A DNA stretch of 23,016 nucleotides from a virus (IMGVR_UViG_2531839468_000018:1-23016); one strand, 5' to 3'. Positions 10,188 through 17,048 are shown, numbered from the stretch's first letter. Translations and numbers: made by a program. Notes: a model not told the origin generated them from the letters alone.

Positions 10188-10404
10188 CCCTTCCCTTATG
10201 GCTAGATTGCGAGAGGTGCTTAACGCGATTTTCAGCGCCCCCCGATCTGGAAAATCCAGAATCCCCAAATATCAGCAAGGAATTTTCTTGCGTAATCAAC
10301 ATCGTTTTTACCTATTAAATCATTACACAGAAAGCCTTTCTGTAATGTCTCTCACTAAACTGTGAACCGCCCCGGGTTTCCTGGAGAGTGTTTTATCTGT
10401 GAAC

Positions 10405-11292
10405 TCAGGCTGCCAGATCATCGTTTCCGATGGAAGCATAATAAGCTTTTTCTGCTTCTGCCGGGGGAGTATGGCCCAGCCTTTCCAGCAATCGTCGATT
10501 GTTATACCAGTCCACCCACGTGAGTGTGGCCAGTTCCACTTCTGCACGGTTTTTCCAGCTCTTACGGTGTATTACCTCCGCTTTGTAAAGACCATTGATG
10601 CTCTCCGCCATCGCGTTGTCATACGAGTCGCCAGTACTCCCTGTTGATGCCAGTAATCCGGCTTCCTTAAGCCGCTGCGTGTAGGCCAGCGATACATACT
10701 GAGAACCTTTATCACTGTGATGGATTGTGCCGGACGGCCGACGGGCCCACAACGCCTGCTCCAGTGCATCCAGCACGAATGTTGTTTCCATGGATGATGA
10801 GACCTGCCATCCCACGATGTATCCGGCGAACACATCAATGATGAACGCCACATAAACGAAGCCCTGCCATGTGCTTACCCAGGTAAAATCAGCCACCCAC
10901 AACTGGTCTGGACGTTCTGCCACGAACTGACGGTTTACGCGGTCGCATGCGGCAACGGCTTTCCGGCTGACGGTAGTGCGGACCTTTTTACCCCGGAGAA
11001 CACCGGCAAGTCCCATAACCGCCATGAGACGTGCCACAGTGCATCTGGCCACTCTGATACCTTCCCGTAACAACTGACGCCAGACTTTACGCACACCGTA
11101 TACCTTGTGATTTTCATCGTATACGCGCTGTATCTCTTTCTTCAGCCAGTCATCGCGCTGCGCACGGGCACTGCGTTTATCCGGATGATGTCGCTGTTGC
11201 TGACAGTGGTAATACGTTGACGGGGCAATATGCAGTTCGCTGCATAGCGGTCCGACCCCGTACTGCTCACGCAGCTTATCCAGCAGCGGCAT
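10405..11292 (-). CDS. IS629-like transposase OrfB
   Basis: [40 protein letters not shown]... with DDE integrase core (..WVADFTWVSTWQGFVYVAFIIDVFAGYIVGW..HSDKGSQYVS..YDNAMAESINGLYKAE..). Confidence 0.85.
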   Translation of the reverse strand: MPLLDKLREQYGVGPLCSELHIAPSTYYHCQQQRHHPDKRSARAQRDDWLKKEIQRVYDENHKVYGVRKVWRQLLREGIRVARCTVARLMAVMGLAGVLRGKKVRTTVSRKAVAACDRVNRQFVAERPDQLWVADFTWVSTWQGFVYVAFIIDVFAGYIVGWQVSSSMETTFVLDALEQALWARRPSGTIHHSDKGSQYVSLAYTQRLKEAGLLASTGSTGDSYDNAMAESINGLYKAEVIHRKSWKNRAEVELATLTWVDWYNNRRLLERLGHTPPAEAEKAYYASIGNDDLAA

Positions 11293-11618
11293 TATTTTTT
11301 CCAGAGGCGGTCGAACTCCGCCTTCGCAAAATAAGCGGAAGCCTGGCGAAGGATATCGTTACTGCGGCGCAGTTCACGATTTTCACGCTCCAGCTCTTTC
11401 AGACGCTGACGTTCAGCGGTGGTGAGCCCTCCATCACCGCCCCCGGTATCCCGCTCATGCTGGCGAACCCAGACACGCAGAGTCTCCGGCGTACAGCCAA
11501 TCTTTGGAGCAATGGAACAAATTGTCGCCCATTGTGAGTCATATTCGCCCTGACTTTCCAGAACCATACGGGCTGCCCGTTGACGGACTTCAGGGGAAAA
11601 ACGAGTATTTTTAGTCAT
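11292..11618 (-). CDS. IS629-like transposase OrfA (HTH / leucine zipper)
   Basis: [61 protein letters not shown]...; ATGA overlap with orfB. Confidence 0.85.
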
Positions 11619-11975
11619 CCTGTTTACCTCTTTCTCAGGGAGTTTAGTCTCCAGGATTCCCGGGGCGGTTCACTTTCACTAAACACGAGAATGATCGGTT
11701 TTATGTCGGATCAGATGCTAGAAACAGCACCACGTCTCACAAGGGCTGTAAGCGATGAAACCAGTGTTTATGCGGGTGCAGGTCAAAATATAGGCCAAAA
11801 TCCATTTAACATAATAATCGTAATATGCACTAAGGAACACATAGAACGCCTTGAATTGATGTATCAGGGGAAAAGTGATGGATTTTTTACGTAGGAGCAC
11901 GAGAGGGCTTCTGTTGACTTTTGTGTGCTATGAAATATAATTAAAGGTTTTTGTTTTTATCGTGTGATGTAGTGG

Positions 11976-12414
11976 ATTACACAGGGGGATAGATTAAATG
12001 GTGTTCTGTTTATACAGGTTTATTTGTTAGATCAACAATTTGGCATTTCTAAACAGATGTTTGAACGTTGCCAAATGTATTGACAACACAAGAAAAGGGC
12101 TTGCTATGCCACGCATTACACGGAATAAGGCTGTAAAAACAAAATAAATTTTAAAATTTGCACAAACGAGAAAACTCGTTCAGAAACAAGCAGAACAATT
12201 TTTAGCCAACAATTTCTGATGGTGCTCTGTAAGCCGCATTACACAAGGCTTTGCGAAAGTGATGTAAAAGTGAAGAAAGTAAGAATTGCACTTTAAGCTA
12301 CTTTTCATTGGATTTTTTAGTATGGAATTACACAGGAATAAGTTAGGGATATTCTATGATTTACACAGGGAATATAGGGGGATTATGGCACACACATAGA
12401 AAGGCATTACACAG
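11976..12414. repeat. Dispersed direct copies of a 9-11-bp motif ATTACAC(A/G)G(G); further copies at 10321, 12996 and inverted copies 12952-13075
   Basis: Copies at 11976, 12115, 12238, 12317, 12359 (ATTTACACAGG) and 12406; three share the extension ACAC(A/G)GGAATA(A/T)(A/G). Confidence 0.6.
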
Positions 12415-12498
12415 AGTGAGTGCTATGTGACAAATGGATGTAACGAGAGGTTACATTCAGCTATCTGAAATGCTCTCTGTAAGAAAGTTGGTAGTAAC

Positions 12499-12607
12499 GG
12501 TAGGTCATAGTGAGCTATGGGGTAGGTCACTGTGAACTAGGGGGGTAGTTCACTATGAGCTAGGGGGTAGGTCATAGTGAGCTAGGGGGTAGGTCACTGT
12601 GAACTAC
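12499..12607. repeat. Five head-to-tail 22-23-bp repeats (GGTAGGTCAYWGTGARCTAGGG), each with an internal dyad; iteron/operator/centromere-like
   Basis: Units at 12499-12520, 12521-12543, 12544-12565, 12566-12587, 12588-12607; immediately followed by a ~70-bp tract that is almost pure A/T (12610-12680). Confidence 0.8.
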
Positions 12608-13694
12608 AATAAGACTATTAATAAAACTATATTAGATTATTAATTAGATCATAATAATAATATTCTTTATATCTATATATATGATCTTTTGCCTTCCGGC
12701 GTTAGCTTCACTCTCTGGCAAGCAGCCTTACTCCGCTACCTTTCGGGCTTCGTGGCTGGCCCGTTCCGCTCACACCGAAAGCAAAGCGTTACTTTCTTCG
12801 TGTAACTATCGTTGGCGGTAACGCCCACGAAGAAATACTATTGCGCTGTGCGCAGAAGAGTAATCACCTAACCAATCATACTGATTGCTTACGTGTTAAC
12901 TCTATCTCTCTACTCTTAATTACCCTCCTACATTTAATAACTCTGTTATTCTCTGTAGTTGTGTAATTACTCGAAGAGAGAGCGGCTAAAGCTCAATTAC
13001 ACTCTGCTTTCCTCGTGTAATTTCACTAAGCCTCAATACAATTCCACTTTCTACATTCTGTAGTCGTGTAATTGTTTTCGGTGGAAAAGCCAGAGGCGAC
13101 ACCGAAAGAGAATTCTGATCTTATTAATCTTATCTATCTTAGTTATCTTACTTACTTTATCCACTTTATTATTAATAATAGCTTTATAAGCTCTGTGTAG
13201 CTCTCTGACGCAAGAAACAGCATTCAGGAAGGGAATCACCTTAGAAAAGTGTTCTTTGCGTCATAATGTGTTTTATGAAGGATTCAGAGGTGTTTCATAA
13301 CAGGAGTGTATAGAGGATACTTTAGGTAATTAAAAATAAGGGGTCTAAATGCTTCTCTAACAGCATTAAGCAGGGTAGGGAATGGAAACGCATTGCCTAC
13401 ATATATAATCTCACTACAGGGCTTTACAGAGCGTTTTATAAAGTGACTCTCTATCTTATATCTACCATTACCTTTTCATATACCTAACAAATACAAAATA
13501 AGCCCCTTAAATAAGCCTCTGGCGAGCTAAACAACCTCTACATAAGAGAATGTATTGCTTTTATCAAAACTTCGTTAGAACGTGTTTTAGAGCGTTTTAG
13601 ACAATAATGAAGAATAGCACTACACAGGAGAGCACGAATTGCTAAGAAAAAATGTAAGTGCATGAAAAAGATCAGATTTTTTATGAAAAGGGTA

Positions 13695-13723
13695 TTGACA
13701 AATGTTTCTTTATATGTAATAAT
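13695..13723 (+). promoter_or_regulatory. Sigma-70-like promoter (TTGACA, 17 bp, TGn-AATAAT) upstream of the early gene train
   Basis: Perfect -35 TTGACA at 13695-13700; extended -10-like TGTAATAAT ending 13723; first gene starts at 13834. Confidence 0.4.
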
Positions 13724-13833
13724 AGGTATTAGAGGGACAGAAAAACATTCTTCTCTAAATAATCAAAATCAATGCACTTTGAAGCCGTCAGGCTTGCAAG
13801 GTGTTTTTCTTTTAACTGAATAAGGAGTTTTTT

Positions 13834-14022
13834 ATGAAATGGTTTACCCCGGAGCACGTCATCTCGGCATTTAAAAAAGGTGAGCTAACACGCCACCAAA
13901 TAGTAATGAATCGTAATATGGCAAGGAGTCGAGGTTATCCAGAGCGAGCAGCTTGCTTCAATGAAGCACTCAAGATTATTGATGAATTAAGAAAAAATGA
14001 AAAAGAATCTGAAACAGAGTAA
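13834..14022 (+). CDS. Small hypothetical protein (62 aa)
   Basis: ATG 6 nt after consensus AAGGAG; first ORF of a co-directional train. Confidence 0.55.
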   Translation: MKWFTPEHVISAFKKGELTRHQIVMNRNMARSRGYPERAACFNEALKIIDELRKNEKESETE

Positions 14023-14041
14023 AGAATAGAAGGAGAAAACT

Positions 14042-14209
14042 ATGAGCGAAACCAAGAAACCAATTCCGCGCACTTACCTACACGTTGACCCTGAAATCTT
14101 CAAGGTTTTATTTGCTGAAGCCAAGAAAAGGCAAATTATGGTCAGTGATTTGATGTTAGAAATCATTACTGAAGCAGCAGAGAACATCAAACAAAAAAAG
14201 GGTAAGTGA
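14042..14209 (+). CDS. Small DNA-binding protein, probable ribbon-helix-helix (Arc/CopG-like) regulator (55 aa)
   Basis: ATG 14042, 6 nt after AAGGAG; MSETKKPIPRTYLHVDPEIFKVLFAEAKKRQIMVSDLMLEIITEAAEN: basic N-terminal strand then two short helices; below the ORF-track cut-off. Confidence 0.5.
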   Translation: MSETKKPIPRTYLHVDPEIFKVLFAEAKKRQIMVSDLMLEIITEAAENIKQKKGK

Positions 14210-14260
14210 TCCTCATTCACTTTAGTAGCGCATTAAGCGTGATTTATAAGGAGATTTTTA

Positions 14261-14950
14261 ATGATTAATCAACTAACTTTTACAAAACACTATGACACGT
14301 TTGATAATGTATCAAAGATTTATTCTGATAAATTCCCTCAAGGAAAAGATTTAGAACTATTACATATTGTGCTTTATTTTCGATTCCTTAGTTATCAGGA
14401 AAACAACCTTAATTGTTATGAAAGTCACGAAACATTAGCTAAGATTTTTAAGTCTTCAGCGTCAACAATTAAACGTAAGATAAACGATCTTAAAGAGATG
14501 GGATTATTAGAAACATCCCCACATCCTGATCCGTATATTTCATCTTTGATTTACAATGCTCTCCCTCTCACAGATGCACATATTACTCCCCCAGGAGAAT
14601 CATCACTCTCTGATCTTTCTGAGGCAGAAGAAGCACAGGAACAACCTAAAGGCCATAAACAGCCTTCTTTTGATGTTCTTGATGATTGGGATGCGCCTTT
14701 GCCGTGGGAGACGGAAGAAACACCTGTTTCATCAAGTGAAAAGGTAGCTAATGATAATGAGGAGGATGTGTTAGAGAATTTTGCCTCTCTTATCTGCCAG
14801 CAGAAACACACCAGAACAGGAGGGGCATCATTTATAGAATTTGCAAATTCACTAGCTTATAGACACGGGCTAAAACGACCAAATGGTATTGAGGCATATT
14901 TTTCTAAGAATTACCCAAATGTGTATGATGACTTTGATATTCCATTTTAA
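14261..14950 (+). CDS. Winged-helix DNA-binding protein, replication-initiator/replisome-organiser-like; acidic C-terminal half ending in an SSB-tail-like DDFDIPF
   Basis: ATG after TAAGGAG; N-terminal ..CYESHETLAKIFKSSASTIKRKINDLKEMGLLE.. is a wHTH signature common in phage O-like initiators; last residues YDDFDIPF* resemble E. coli SSB C-terminus DFDDDIPF. Confidence 0.6.
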   Translation: MINQLTFTKHYDTFDNVSKIYSDKFPQGKDLELLHIVLYFRFLSYQENNLNCYESHETLAKIFKSSASTIKRKINDLKEMGLLETSPHPDPYISSLIYNALPLTDAHITPPGESSLSDLSEAEEAQEQPKGHKQPSFDVLDDWDAPLPWETEETPVSSSEKVANDNEEDVLENFASLICQQKHTRTGGASFIEFANSLAYRHGLKRPNGIEAYFSKNYPNVYDDFDIPF

Positions 14951-14961
14951 TAAGGAGGGTT

Positions 14962-15240
14962 ATGATTCAATATTTAGTAAAAAATCAAGTAGACAGAATT
15001 CAGTGTAATGACACAGGAAAACGCATCTACGAAACACTTGCTTACCTCTATAAAGGAAAGCCAACACCGCTAAAATATAGCGATGTGTTACACCGAGCAG
15101 GGTGCTCTGAAGATGGTTTAAAATTCTGGCTGAAACAGCTATCAAATTTCGGTGTTATAGAGATTAAAGAATTATCTTTCTCTACATTCAATCTCAAAAG
15201 ACTGGATAAAGAAATAGTATTCATCTATTCCACTCTCTAA
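14962..15240 (+). CDS. Hypothetical protein (92 aa), possible small wHTH
   Basis: ATG after AAGGAGGG; ..KYSDVLHRAGCSEDGLKFWLKQLSNFGVIEI.. Confidence 0.5.
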   Translation: MIQYLVKNQVDRIQCNDTGKRIYETLAYLYKGKPTPLKYSDVLHRAGCSEDGLKFWLKQLSNFGVIEIKELSFSTFNLKRLDKEIVFIYSTL

Positions 15241-15372
15241 AATCTCTCTATGTAATTAAAATATAAAAGGAAAACATTATTATGATAGTAGCTATGTATT
15301 GGTTATTGTTCTTTCTCACGTTAGAAACATATTTCGGGGTGTTTTCCTTTAAAAGAAAAGGAAAAGTAAATA

Positions 15373-15780
15373 ATGGCAAAAAGAAAAAACAACGTTGTTA
15401 AGAAAATCGGTGATTCAGCTTCTCTTCTAAGTAAACCTAAATCTATTCTAAGACGTAAAGACTTTAAAGAGCTAGTTACGCTCTCCAAGCAAAATAGCGC
15501 CCCTGGCGAATGGAAAACAGAGATCATAGAACATTCTCCCTCTGTGCCTTGTGGAGATGAATTTAACGCCTTACAAGAAATCTTATCTTCAACACCTGGC
15601 GTATTCTGGAAACCTAGAAAAAGAAAAGAGTATATTGTTGATAGCTCTGATTTACGCAAATACCAGATTTTAGGATTTGAAGACTATAACCACTACGTTG
15701 GTTATCTCGCCACCAATGGCCTAAATAATTTAGTTCCTGAATTCCATTTAGATAATGATGATCACTATGGAGACTTTTAA
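15373..15780 (+). CDS. Hypothetical protein (135 aa), basic N-terminus
   Basis: ORF with ATG start in the co-directional train; MAKRKNNVVKKIGDSASLLSKPKSILRRK... Confidence 0.5.
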   Translation: MAKRKNNVVKKIGDSASLLSKPKSILRRKDFKELVTLSKQNSAPGEWKTEIIEHSPSVPCGDEFNALQEILSSTPGVFWKPRKRKEYIVDSSDLRKYQILGFEDYNHYVGYLATNGLNNLVPEFHLDNDDHYGDF

Positions 15781-15781
15781 T

Positions 15782-16117
15782 ATGAACAAAAACACGTATG
15801 ACACAATTTATTCACTAATTAATTATTATGAGGATGATTACCTCCTGCCTTTAAACCGTGCTGAACTTGAAGCACACAAAAACTCCACGCCAGCGGCACT
15901 AAATGAGGCGTTTAAACACTGGGATTTAGCTGTGAATGCCTTTGAGATGCTCTGTAAGCGTGTAGAGATGCTCTGTAAGCGTGAAAACGCATACCTGACA
16001 GCCGATCAGATATGGGAGCTATCAAACTGGATAGAAGATATTGAATCTGATGTTCGCTATGTGGGAGATGGCCTTATCGAACTCGCTCAACGCTTAGCCG
16101 TTATCACAGAAGAATAA
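15782..16117 (+). CDS. Hypothetical protein (~111 aa) containing an in-frame 21-bp tandem duplication
   Basis: ORF track 15755-16117; preferred start ATG 15782, 8 nt after GGAGA; duplicated EMLCKRV/EMLCKRE from GAGATGCTCTGTAAGCGTG x2 at 15944-15983. Confidence 0.5.
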   Translation: MNKNTYDTIYSLINYYEDDYLLPLNRAELEAHKNSTPAALNEAFKHWDLAVNAFEMLCKRVEMLCKRENAYLTADQIWELSNWIEDIESDVRYVGDGLIELAQRLAVITEE

Positions 16118-16144
16118 AAAAGCAACAAAAAGTTGTAAAATATC

Positions 16145-16173
16145 TTGACATTTCATCTATTGTATGTTAATAT
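16145..16173 (+). promoter_or_regulatory. Strong sigma-70-like promoter (TTGACA, 17 bp, TGn-TAATAT) heading a ~200-nt leader
   Basis: Perfect -35 at 16145-16150, extended -10 TGTTAATAT at 16165-16173; same architecture as the 13695 promoter. Confidence 0.5.
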
Positions 16174-16306
16174 AATTATATAGGGTGATTATTTTTCCTT
16201 TATTGGTTCGATATTAAAAATTCTTCTTGTCGTTAAAGGGGAGTAAAATCTCCGCTCCCCGCTTCTCCTCCTCCTTAAGTGTCATTATTACCTCTTTTTT
16301 CCTTTG

Positions 16307-16334
16307 TTATGCATACATCTTGGAGTATGCATAA
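16307..16334. promoter_or_regulatory. Perfect 9-bp inverted repeat TTATGCATA-N10-TATGCATAA (operator-like)
   Basis: Arms 16307-16315 and 16326-16334, in the leader between promoter and terminator. Confidence 0.4.
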
Positions 16335-16365
16335 CATAGGGTAATTACATAGGTACAAGTTAATA

Positions 16366-16399
16366 AAAGGCGGCTCTAAATGCTGCCTTTTATTTTGCC
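16366..16399 (+). terminator. Intrinsic terminator inside the leader (tR'-like)
   Basis: Stem AAAGGCGGC / GCUGCCUUU (one G-U pair), 7-nt loop, then TTTTATTTT. Confidence 0.6.
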
Positions 16400-16404
16400 C
16401 GTTA

Positions 16405-16422
16405 TACAACTTAAAAGTTGTA
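16405..16422. promoter_or_regulatory. Perfect palindrome TACAACTT-AA-AAGTTGTA (operator-like) just upstream of the late genes
   Basis: 8-bp arms with 2-bp spacer, 37 bp before ATG 16459. Confidence 0.4.
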
Positions 16423-16458
16423 TTTCTTACTTTAAACAAGGTAACAAGGTTTATATAA

Positions 16459-16671
16459 ATGTTGTTCTTAAATGATAAAGAGCAAATCATCAAGTATCGC
16501 GATGAAATGCTAAAGATCAATCCACAAATTACCGAAATGGTAGCTAAATACGCTGGGTGTTCTGTCGAGGAAGTAGAAAGATGTGTTGAAAAATATTTTT
16601 CTCCTTCTTCTCCGTCTACACCTTCCCTTAATGAATTAATCAAATTAAAAGCTAAGGAGATTACTAAATGA
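16459..16671 (+). CDS. Hypothetical protein (70 aa)
   Basis: First ORF after the leader terminator; stop overlaps the next start (ATGA). Confidence 0.5.
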   Translation: MLFLNDKEQIIKYRDEMLKINPQITEMVAKYAGCSVEEVERCVEKYFSPSSPSTPSLNELIKLKAKEITK

Positions 16672-17030
16672 TTATTGATTTAGACACTCTGTTTCCAGTT
16701 CGAAAGACTTTCACAGATATTGTAAGTTATTGTACTGATCCGTTTGCCTCTGTAGAAAACAAGGTTTTTGCTTCTCTTCCTGCTGATGTTGAATGCGGAG
16801 ACTTGATCACCAGCACGGGCGCTAAATATGTATCAGGAGATGATATCTATGTTGTTATGAGTGAATTTTTAACGGCTGGAGCAAACAAGCCTGTAGATGT
16901 TTTACGTAGCAATGCTGGGCTTGTATGCATTAAAGCTGATGCGCTGAATGCTGTAAGTGAAGCAGCAAAAACAGCATTAATTAAAAAAGGCTTCCAGCTT
17001 GAAGGGTTCCATTCTGTTTTCACTTCTTAA
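16668..17030 (+). CDS. Hypothetical protein (120 aa)
   Basis: ATG after TAAGGAG; translationally coupled to the preceding ORF. Confidence 0.55.
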   Translation: MIIDLDTLFPVRKTFTDIVSYCTDPFASVENKVFASLPADVECGDLITSTGAKYVSGDDIYVVMSEFLTAGANKPVDVLRSNAGLVCIKADALNAVSEAAKTALIKKGFQLEGFHSVFTS

Positions 17031-17048
17031 TAAAAGGAATAATAATAA

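Follow-up and report, generated by a model that had tools for sequence, protein, structure and literature searches.

A promoter, structured leader RNA and intrinsic terminator in front of the capsid genes of a satellite-like island in Escherichia coli and related bacteria

In phage lambda (NC_001416), the stop codon of Q is followed after 42 nucleotides (nt) by the late promoter PR' (TTGACT-17-TAAATT), from which transcription starts at AACGATGGG and gives a 194-nt RNA that extends to the terminator tR'. Phage HK022 carries put, a cis-acting RNA of ~70 nt that comprises two defined stem-loops and constitutively renders RNA polymerase resistant to termination. In the RNA immunity of P4 (CI), P1 (C4) and N15 (CB), an RNA derived from the leader promotes premature termination; in P4 the promoter is constitutive, the leader is untranslated and transcription ends ahead of the genes. 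Genes of the alpA family occur in Gram-negative phage-inducible chromosomal islands. AlpA of Pseudomonas aeruginosa, one small protein that loads at the promoter, bypasses intrinsic terminators between the promoter and the first open reading frame (ORF) in two operons, alpBCDE and PA0807, with one or two terminators lying directly upstream of that ORF (PMC7969949). A further outcome of such control is StxS, a small RNA (sRNA) that Shiga-toxin phages make from their PR'-tR' transcript (PMC7547250). Here, we describe a comparable arrangement of promoter, leader and terminator ahead of the capsid genes of an island in Escherichia coli, within a stretch of 23,016 bp (IMGVR_UViG_2531839468_000018:1-23016) that is referred to, at its full length, as the window. 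Its setting is an AT-rich segment (~36% G+C) of the E. coli chromosome at ~11900-22500, and the same segment forms a discrete, integrative island of ~10.5 kb in other strains.

It is clear from our results that the elements of this region are present, exceed chance expectation and are conserved as RNA structure, and that the architecture is shared throughout the island family. We propose that the leader is a terminator gate of the capsid operon that needs processive antitermination by a trans-acting factor, a reading whose chances we consider to be about even. If it is right, the promoter would be constitutive, the terminator would be efficient in vivo, and read-through would be regulated and not merely leaky.

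The leader region and its variants in E. coli

The region comprises the following features:

16145-16173, + strand: sigma-70 promoter (TTGACA at 16145-16150, 17-nt spacer, TG at 16165-16166, TAATAT at 16168-16173)
16180-16398, + strand: predicted leader RNA (terminated, ~219 nt; no ORF is conserved)
16238-16260, + strand: hairpin 1 (GGGGAGU at 16238-16244 with GCUCCCC at 16254-16260, 9-nt loop, pair probability 0.93-0.97)
16261-16279, + strand: single-stranded C/U-rich tract, GCUUCUCCUCCUCCUUAAG, which contains CCUCCUUA (read from the sequence)
16301-16340, + strand: hairpin 2 (16-nt arms at 16301-16316 and 16325-16340, 8-nt loop)
16362-16398, + strand: intrinsic terminator, UUUUAUUUU (13-bp stem at 16362-16374 and 16382-16394, 7-nt loop, U tract to 16398)
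16404-16423, + strand: post-terminator hairpin (9-bp arms at 16404-16412 and 16415-16423 around a central AA)
16435-16461, + strand: ribosome-binding region (tandem AACAAGGT repeat, AU-rich spacer, ATG at 16459)

The promoter, which a first-pass annotation of the window had described as near-consensus (TTGACA-17-TGnTAATAT), matches the consensus at 10 of 12 positions and carries an extended -10 (TGtTAATAT). Its -35 element lies 27 nt past the upstream stop codon, and the predicted start, at ~16180-16183, falls inside a conserved ATAGGG. When both strands of the window are scanned, TTGACA-N14-TGNWANNNT is found twice only, at 13695 and 16145. Each site is on the + strand and heads an operon; 0.06 matches were expected, and 0 of 100 shuffles gave two or more. 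The same annotation had pointed to an identically built promoter at 13695, which is borne out and is likewise followed by a terminator-like hairpin. No promoter-like site was found on the + strand between 16174 and 17017, so that transcription into the capsid block, including any that arrives from the early operon, has to pass the terminator.

The 281 nt that follow the promoter fold with a z score of -5.7 relative to dinucleotide shuffles, none of which (0/200) was as stable. Hairpin 1 is found where it had been proposed, with GGGGAG facing CUCCCC. The element announced as a perfect 9-bp inverted repeat is also there but had been underestimated in size, as the arms of hairpin 2 are 94% complementary, include 12 contiguous perfect pairs and have a pair probability of ~1.0. 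The strong intrinsic terminator that had been claimed has a hairpin of -17.3 kcal/mol with a pair probability of ~1.0 and 8 U in 9 positions, and it ends 60 nt before the first ATG of the capsid block. It was recovered by our own scan and not by a consensus scanner, probably since the stem at its longest takes up some of the U residues. The first downstream ORF begins with the ATG at 16459, as annotated, encodes 70 amino acids (aa) and is conserved in relatives; repeat analysis shows that the Shine-Dalgarno-proximal AACAAGG can pair with UGUUGUU directly after the AUG.

The C/U-rich tract that follows hairpin 1 is conserved only within the E. coli type of leader, and CCUCCUUAAG is retained in variants in which the tract is rearranged. 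The CCUCCUUA motif within it matches the 3' end of 16S rRNA, in the manner of an anti-Shine-Dalgarno sequence.

The best competing duplex with the 5' arm of the terminator reaches -8.6 kcal/mol, compared with -17.3 kcal/mol for the terminator itself, and forbidding the terminator costs 12.8 kcal/mol. We considered a riboswitch or classical attenuator and regard it as unlikely, as no mutually exclusive antiterminator helix is present; for the same reason a trans-acting or processive mechanism is favoured over these.

How selection acts on the region can be read from 38 distinct versions of the leader, collected from E. coli genomes, IMG/VR proviruses and gut metagenomes. In all 38 of them the -35, the TG, the -10 and the U tract are unchanged, as are all seven pairs of hairpin 1 and the 9-bp core of the terminator. 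Substitutions, together with indels of 1, 6 and 17 nt, are concentrated in the linkers (16273-16300 and 16349-16365) and in loops, including a 1-nt deletion in the loop of hairpin 1, and variation affects 10 of the 109 positions that belong to promoter or stems, as opposed to 45 of 205 elsewhere (Fisher p = 0.005). These indels destroy reading frames, so attenuation by a leader peptide, in which a small ORF would couple translation to termination, is scarcely credible: the 37-codon TTG-initiated frame that can be picked out by eye from 16227 is lost in close variants and has no Shine-Dalgarno sequence, and the leader offers no terminator/antiterminator alternative.

Only two stem changes are frequent, namely 16327 A>G in hairpin 2 (17 of the 38 versions) and 16406 A>G in the post-terminator hairpin (32 of the 38), and both turn a U-A or A-U pair into G·U. 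Since a G·U pair keeps the RNA helix but breaks the DNA palindrome, the constraint acts on RNA. The repeat had been presented as a perfect palindrome at 16405-16422; an inverted repeat does lie there, at 16404-16423, but it is not strictly perfect, since its two 9-bp arms stand around a central AA. One of its pairs is G·T in 32 of the 38 versions, and the form seen in the window is the minority allele. This distribution bears on the idea that the repeats act as DNA, be it as a repressor operator, a packaging (cos/pac) site or a replication element. The 9+2+9 repeat at 16404-16423 does look like a dimer-binding site, and an island without terminase must have a packaging signal somewhere, but we consider a role as DNA very unlikely: in 32 of the 38 versions the repeat is asymmetric as DNA and yet pairs as RNA, hairpin 2 behaves likewise, relatives show compensatory changes, there is none of the similarity to phage DNA that a shared cos site would give, and origin-like iterons and repeats are found elsewhere, at 11976-12606. 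Mimicry of the late promoter of a known helper phage, or a cos site shared with one, was examined separately and is unsupported, blastn searches of 50,697 phage genomes with the leader, the promoter and the origin-like region having returned chance-level matches only.

Leaders of the relatives in other genera

Relatives were gathered from genome, provirus and assembly collections with the capsid protein as anchor. In all of those retrieved, gene order is kept and an ORF-free gap of 340-990 nt separates an ORF of ~70-115 aa from the first gene of the capsid block, of ~70 aa. All relatives examined share one architecture, in which a consensus promoter is followed by an ORF-free leader of 280-950 nt, at least one terminator and then the capsid genes, and they come from E. 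coli, Klebsiella-type hosts, Enterobacter, Citrobacter, Kluyvera, Buttiauxella, Scandinavium, Serratia and Sodalis. An equivalently placed promoter is present in relatives from at least seven genera, and in nearly every lineage it consists of TTGAC(A/T), a TG-extended -10 and a TA(T)AGGG start, 15-90 nt past the upstream stop codon. Each gap holds at least one terminator composed of a hairpin and a T run, usually 30-130 nt before the ATG. In two relatives (L003 and L019) the last terminator and the ATG are only ~32-45 nt apart, which is too short for a separate promoter plus 5' untranslated region.

Islands of Buttiauxella, Kluyvera, Scandinavium, Citrobacter and Enterobacter share a long type of leader, of ~600-690 nt, which is found in L005 (for example, L005:6776-7400), L006, L007, L009, L015, L017, L020 and L044-L055. 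Covarying helices, a long-range helix of 18 bp and two tandem terminators are present in it, and its invariant motifs are the UUCCCAUAG loop, GUUCCGAAGG, GUCAGAC and, near the 5' end, AUUCGAAU. In an alignment of seven genera, 92 pairs are predicted, and 92.5% of their cells are paired, compared with 41-48% in slid controls, and 34 pairs are changed on both sides, compared with 8-12 in slid controls; values as high as those observed occurred in 0 of 500 shuffles. These covariation counts were made on the same alignment from which the long-type structure was derived. Many long-type leaders, but not all, also have CCUCC in the loop of a hairpin (helix 9 in L006 and L020).

Compensatory changes occur in the terminator stems of the long-type leaders, and the covarying helices include both terminators, a hairpin past the second terminator (helix 12) and a helix that joins the Shine-Dalgarno sequence and the first codons (helix 13). 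Helix 12 occupies the same relative position as the post-terminator hairpin of the window, and helix 13 is analogous to the Shine-Dalgarno/start pairing described above. Structure downstream of the terminator is thus under selection, and the read-through RNA therefore matters.

Conservation takes a different form between lineages. An nhmmer profile built from 17 long-type leaders (584-688 nt) found no match in the leader of the window or in five other types, and homology between leader types, which had been suggested by U/C-rich blocks that seem shared by eye, was discarded since these blocks are not significant. The architecture is conserved between lineages, and the leader sequences are not detectably related. 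No leader, in the window or in eight relatives, matches Rfam at gathering score, and that of the window has no match at E <= 5 either; the long-type leader is a candidate new RNA family outside Rfam.

The same data bear on whether the leader is primarily an sRNA gene, with the ~219-nt RNA or a processed part of it acting in trans on mRNAs of the island, a helper phage or the host, perhaps by way of the exposed CCUCCUUA tract. sRNA genes are typically built from a strong promoter and a strong Rho-independent terminator with a long U tail, as is found here, the structure is conserved, the single-stranded C/U-rich tract is kept in the aligned variants, and StxS offers a precedent for a terminated late-promoter RNA with an acquired sRNA function (PMC7547250). 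Nevertheless, the failure of the long-type profile to find other types and leader lengths of 280-950 nt are unlike a trans-acting RNA with conserved targets, the covarying structure past the terminator shows the read-through RNA to be of importance, the downstream operon lacks its own promoter, and no Rfam sRNA family is matched. We regard a primary sRNA function as possible, if on the doubtful side. It may coexist with a terminator gate, in that the terminated RNA may, as in the case of StxS, also act as an sRNA, and the short RNA could then be abundant in pathogenic E. coli.

Terminators in series and a possible antitermination gate

Two further sites in the window resemble the leader terminator, one of them behind the second copy of the promoter:

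13695-13723, + strand: second promoter (TTGACA-17-TGtAATAAT, an 11/12 match with TG), heading the early/replication operon
13774-13813, + strand: early terminator-like hairpin (12 pairs plus a bulge at 13774-13804, then UUUUCUUUU)
18094-18128, + strand: strong intrinsic post-capsid terminator (9 pairs at 18094-18118, then GCCTTTTTTT (T7)), 17 nt past the capsid stop codon and inside the late operon

Some 20 nt separate the early hairpin from the first ORF of the early operon (13834). Apart from this terminator-like hairpin and a 5' hairpin after the promoter, there is little in the early leader. The early start region, UAGAGGG, is similar to the late one, AUAGGG, and TA(T)AGGG is conserved at ~+1 to +8 in most relatives and at both promoters. 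The early hairpin recurs in Klebsiella-type, Enterobacter and NC101 relatives with stem bases that have changed yet remain paired, and other relatives have a different GC hairpin and U run in its place. At the post-capsid position, a GC-rich hairpin with a T run is found in eight of the nine relatives checked. The island thus presents a unidirectional gene array with two consensus promoters that is interrupted by at least three intrinsic terminators, and terminator-like sites are enriched between 12000 and 19000 (10 found, 4.4 expected). Strong AAGGAG ribosome-binding sites precede the early genes. A weak Rfam match to L20_leader at 18009-18134 (E = 0.35) most likely reflects the post-capsid hairpin and looks like chance.

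In the mechanism that we propose, the sigma-70 promoter at 16145-16173 would fire, probably without an activator, and the folded leader RNA of ~219 nt would end at the terminator at 16362-16398. The capsid, tape-measure-like and Dit-like genes would be expressed only by RNA polymerase that crosses the leader terminator, and the same polymerase would then cross the second terminator, after the capsid gene. Relief would most likely depend on a factor that acts in trans and alters RNA polymerase at, or close to, the promoter or 5' leader, and processive antitermination of this kind is indicated because terminators stand in series and two operons have the same build. The early operon, transcribed from the promoter at 13695, appears to be gated alike, so that one factor could open both, and this factor may be a novel island protein or a product of a helper phage. 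The first-pass annotation had likened the region to lambda PR'-tR'; the layout and logic hold, in that the unit precedes the capsid block, no other promoter is present and the arrangement is kept across genera, while the mechanism is put forward as a proposal.

The search for an antiterminator among the island proteins bears directly on this proposal. The ORFs at 15373 and 15782, which had been put forward as candidate activators and which encode p135 and p111, do not look like Q proteins, and neither they nor any small ORF of the island match Pfam, even at E <= 5. A Q antiterminator gene just upstream of the leader was not found by sequence or by fold (Pfam families PF03589, PF06530 and PF06323), PHROGs gave no Q-like or AlpA-like match for the small island ORFs, and neither Pfam Phage_AlpA nor any winged-helix family is matched by an island ORF. 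With p111 as query, an exhaustive HMMER search returned eight matches, all of them small uncharacterised proteins except one repetitive protein of 721 aa, and the AlphaFold model of p111 (predicted local distance difference test score, pLDDT, 92.5) is a generic three-helix bundle. In addition, the p111 ORF contains a perfect 21-nt tandem duplication (15944-15983) that adds a VEMLCKR heptad; homologues have zero, one or two copies, and length variation is therefore tolerated in the second helix of p111.

Several results weigh against a gate opened by processive antitermination. Besides the empty Pfam searches, NCBIfam and PADLOC, which covered all small island ORFs but p53, p62 and p55, gave no match, the p111 model has no Foldseek match at E <= 0.001 in PDB or BFVD, and the AlphaFold model of p135 (pLDDT 55) is too poor for use. 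By eye, no clear -10-like element of the kind that causes sigma-dependent pausing in the initially transcribed region of lambda-type units is seen: TA(T)AGGG is unconvincing as one, and the last position of the hexamer before GGG is not T, unlike in the AACGAT-GGG of lambda. The -35/-10 spacers of the late and early promoters, compared by eye in the window and five relatives, share no motif beyond TATGT beside the -10, and the promoter and start region has only chance-level blastn matches in 50,697 phage genomes. A metagenome scan for transcript evidence yielded 28 gut contigs, all of them DNA. Finally, a terminator after a capsid gene is a common way to set protein ratios without antitermination.

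This last point is shared by the view that the leader terminator is a fixed attenuator or insulator, which would end the early operon and pass a constant fraction of transcription into the capsid block, with leakiness alone setting expression. The early operon (13695-16117) lacks its own terminator up to 16362, and early transcripts would thus also end at the leader hairpin; moreover, no antiterminator protein has been found. On the other hand, a consensus promoter directly before a strong terminator would be wasteful if only low expression were wanted, and a constant leak would not call for the tandem terminators of the long-type leaders, for a large covarying leader structure maintained over several genera, or for a promoter-plus-terminator build at both operons. 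We therefore consider a fixed attenuator unlikely.

A more far-reaching version of the gate is also conceivable. The leaders could represent an undescribed class of large, fast-evolving structured cis-regulatory RNAs (220-690 nt, with covarying helices and conserved loops in the long type) through which a capsid-encoding, satellite-like island senses its helper phage, with a helper-encoded factor, a lineage-specific island factor or a put-like RNA itself making polymerase terminator-resistant at both promoters, so that replication and capsid genes are switched on together. We consider this unlikely; if it were true, the divergence of leader types would reflect specificity matching between island and helper. 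The two island operons appear to be held shut by terminators and not by a recognisable repressor. Knowing what opens these terminators would reveal the signal that induces a new family of mobile elements, with a new antiterminator or RNA-based control element as a possible further gain, and the leader RNAs are candidates for new Rfam families.

The island and its comparison with known systems

The left part of the island consists of an ORF-poor region, the promoter at 13695, three small ORFs and a 229-aa helix-turn-helix protein that resembles phage replication initiators (Rep-like), followed by p92, p135, p111 and then the leader region. After the leader come p70, p120 and a 342-aa major capsid protein of the lambda gpE type, which matches Pfam Phage_cap_E (E = 4e-16). 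Downstream of the capsid gene lie p67, a 609-aa protein that matches a tape-measure PHROG and a Dit-like protein, and a tyrosine integrase gene stands at the end of the island on the strand opposite to the other genes. There are no terminase, portal, protease or lysis genes among the island ORFs, and no protein encoded in the 50,697 phage genomes is more than 25% identical to the capsid protein; the island therefore looks like a satellite-type element and not a decayed known prophage. It likely depends on a helper phage, because it has its own capsid protein but no packaging machinery, and it may represent an undescribed type of phage satellite. We found no description of the island family in the literature, and its existing annotation is limited to "hypothetical protein" and "major capsid protein".

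The leader region is carried by 307 of 5426 complete E. coli genomes (~6%), O26 and NC101 among them, and homologues of the capsid protein and p135 occur in Klebsiella, Enterobacter, Citrobacter, Cronobacter, Serratia, Sodalis and others, with p135 being abundant in Klebsiella. None of the 28 gut DNA contigs has a terminal overlap that would indicate a circular form. The island adjoins tRNA-Thr in KSC64 and MB06234, and that of NC101 adjoins tRNA-Gly and has a different integrase. The islands of NC101 (L023) and MB06234 (L002) are near-identical, yet they differ in tRNA site (tRNA-Gly and tRNA-Thr) and in integrase (406 and 425 aa), which points to an exchangeable integration module. The 23,016-bp window contains no tRNA gene, and the usual tRNA-proximal junction of the island is therefore rearranged here. 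The left end of the island is adjoined by an IS3-family element (10405-11618, - strand), which has an ALIL frameshift pseudoknot (Rfam, 119 bits), and an IS009 RNA match (214 bits) lies further upstream, at 3735-3933.

The ORF-poor region of ~1.7 kb contains 4.9 tandem copies of a 22-nt iteron (GGTAGGTCACTGTGAGCTAGGG) at 12499-12606 and four copies of ATTACACRG at 11976-12414; with a fifth copy outside, at 10322, the window holds five, against 0.35 expected. These repeats are probably a replication origin and/or arm sites for the recombinase, and blastn detected no similarity between this origin-like region and DNA of the 50,697 phage genomes. Among the early genes, p55 (14042-14209, 55 aa) is 100% identical to its counterpart in a relative (L003:4155-4319), and the adjacent early proteins are only 23-63% identical, a contrast that suggests either recent exchange or strong constraint. 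By eye, p55 resembles a ribbon-helix-helix DNA-binding protein; no Pfam model matched it.

Set beside the described systems, the island resembles each in some respects and departs from it in others. As with HK022 put, structured RNA lies directly downstream of two promoters and upstream of terminators, but no resemblance to put could be shown and the early leader has little beyond its 5' hairpin and terminator. With P4 CI, P1 C4 and N15 CB, the island shares an untranslated leader behind a promoter that is probably constitutive, termination ahead of the genes, a satellite-like nature and the lack of an obvious protein repressor. Rfam family C4, which covers these RNAs, has no match at E <= 5 over 11800-18400, and the island differs further in having no clear complementary triplet of the seqA/seqB/seqC type and in that its leader precedes capsid genes as well as early genes. 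StxS is a terminated by-product of an antitermination-controlled late promoter that is able to act as RNA itself, as the island leader RNA may be, and there is no sequence relationship between the two.

The likeness to the AlpA targets is that the island has two operons with promoter-proximal terminators before the first ORF, and the difference is that none of its ORFs matches an AlpA or winged-helix family. The correspondence with lambda PR'-tR' extends over the whole unit: a gene end is followed within 27-42 nt by a strong sigma-70 promoter, a short untranslated RNA (194 nt in lambda, ~219 nt in the island) runs up to an intrinsic terminator, and morphogenetic genes without a promoter of their own lie beyond it. 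In contrast to lambda, the island has no Q homologue that we could find and no demonstrable -10-like pause element, its early operon has the same build as the late one whereas early transcription in lambda uses N and nut sites, and at ~10.5 kb, with neither terminase nor portal nor lysis genes, it is not a phage. The likeness to lambda Q and to AlpA is consequently one of design and not of family membership. The control design is known in kind; what is new is an island family for which no published description was found, together with leader RNAs that stand outside Rfam.

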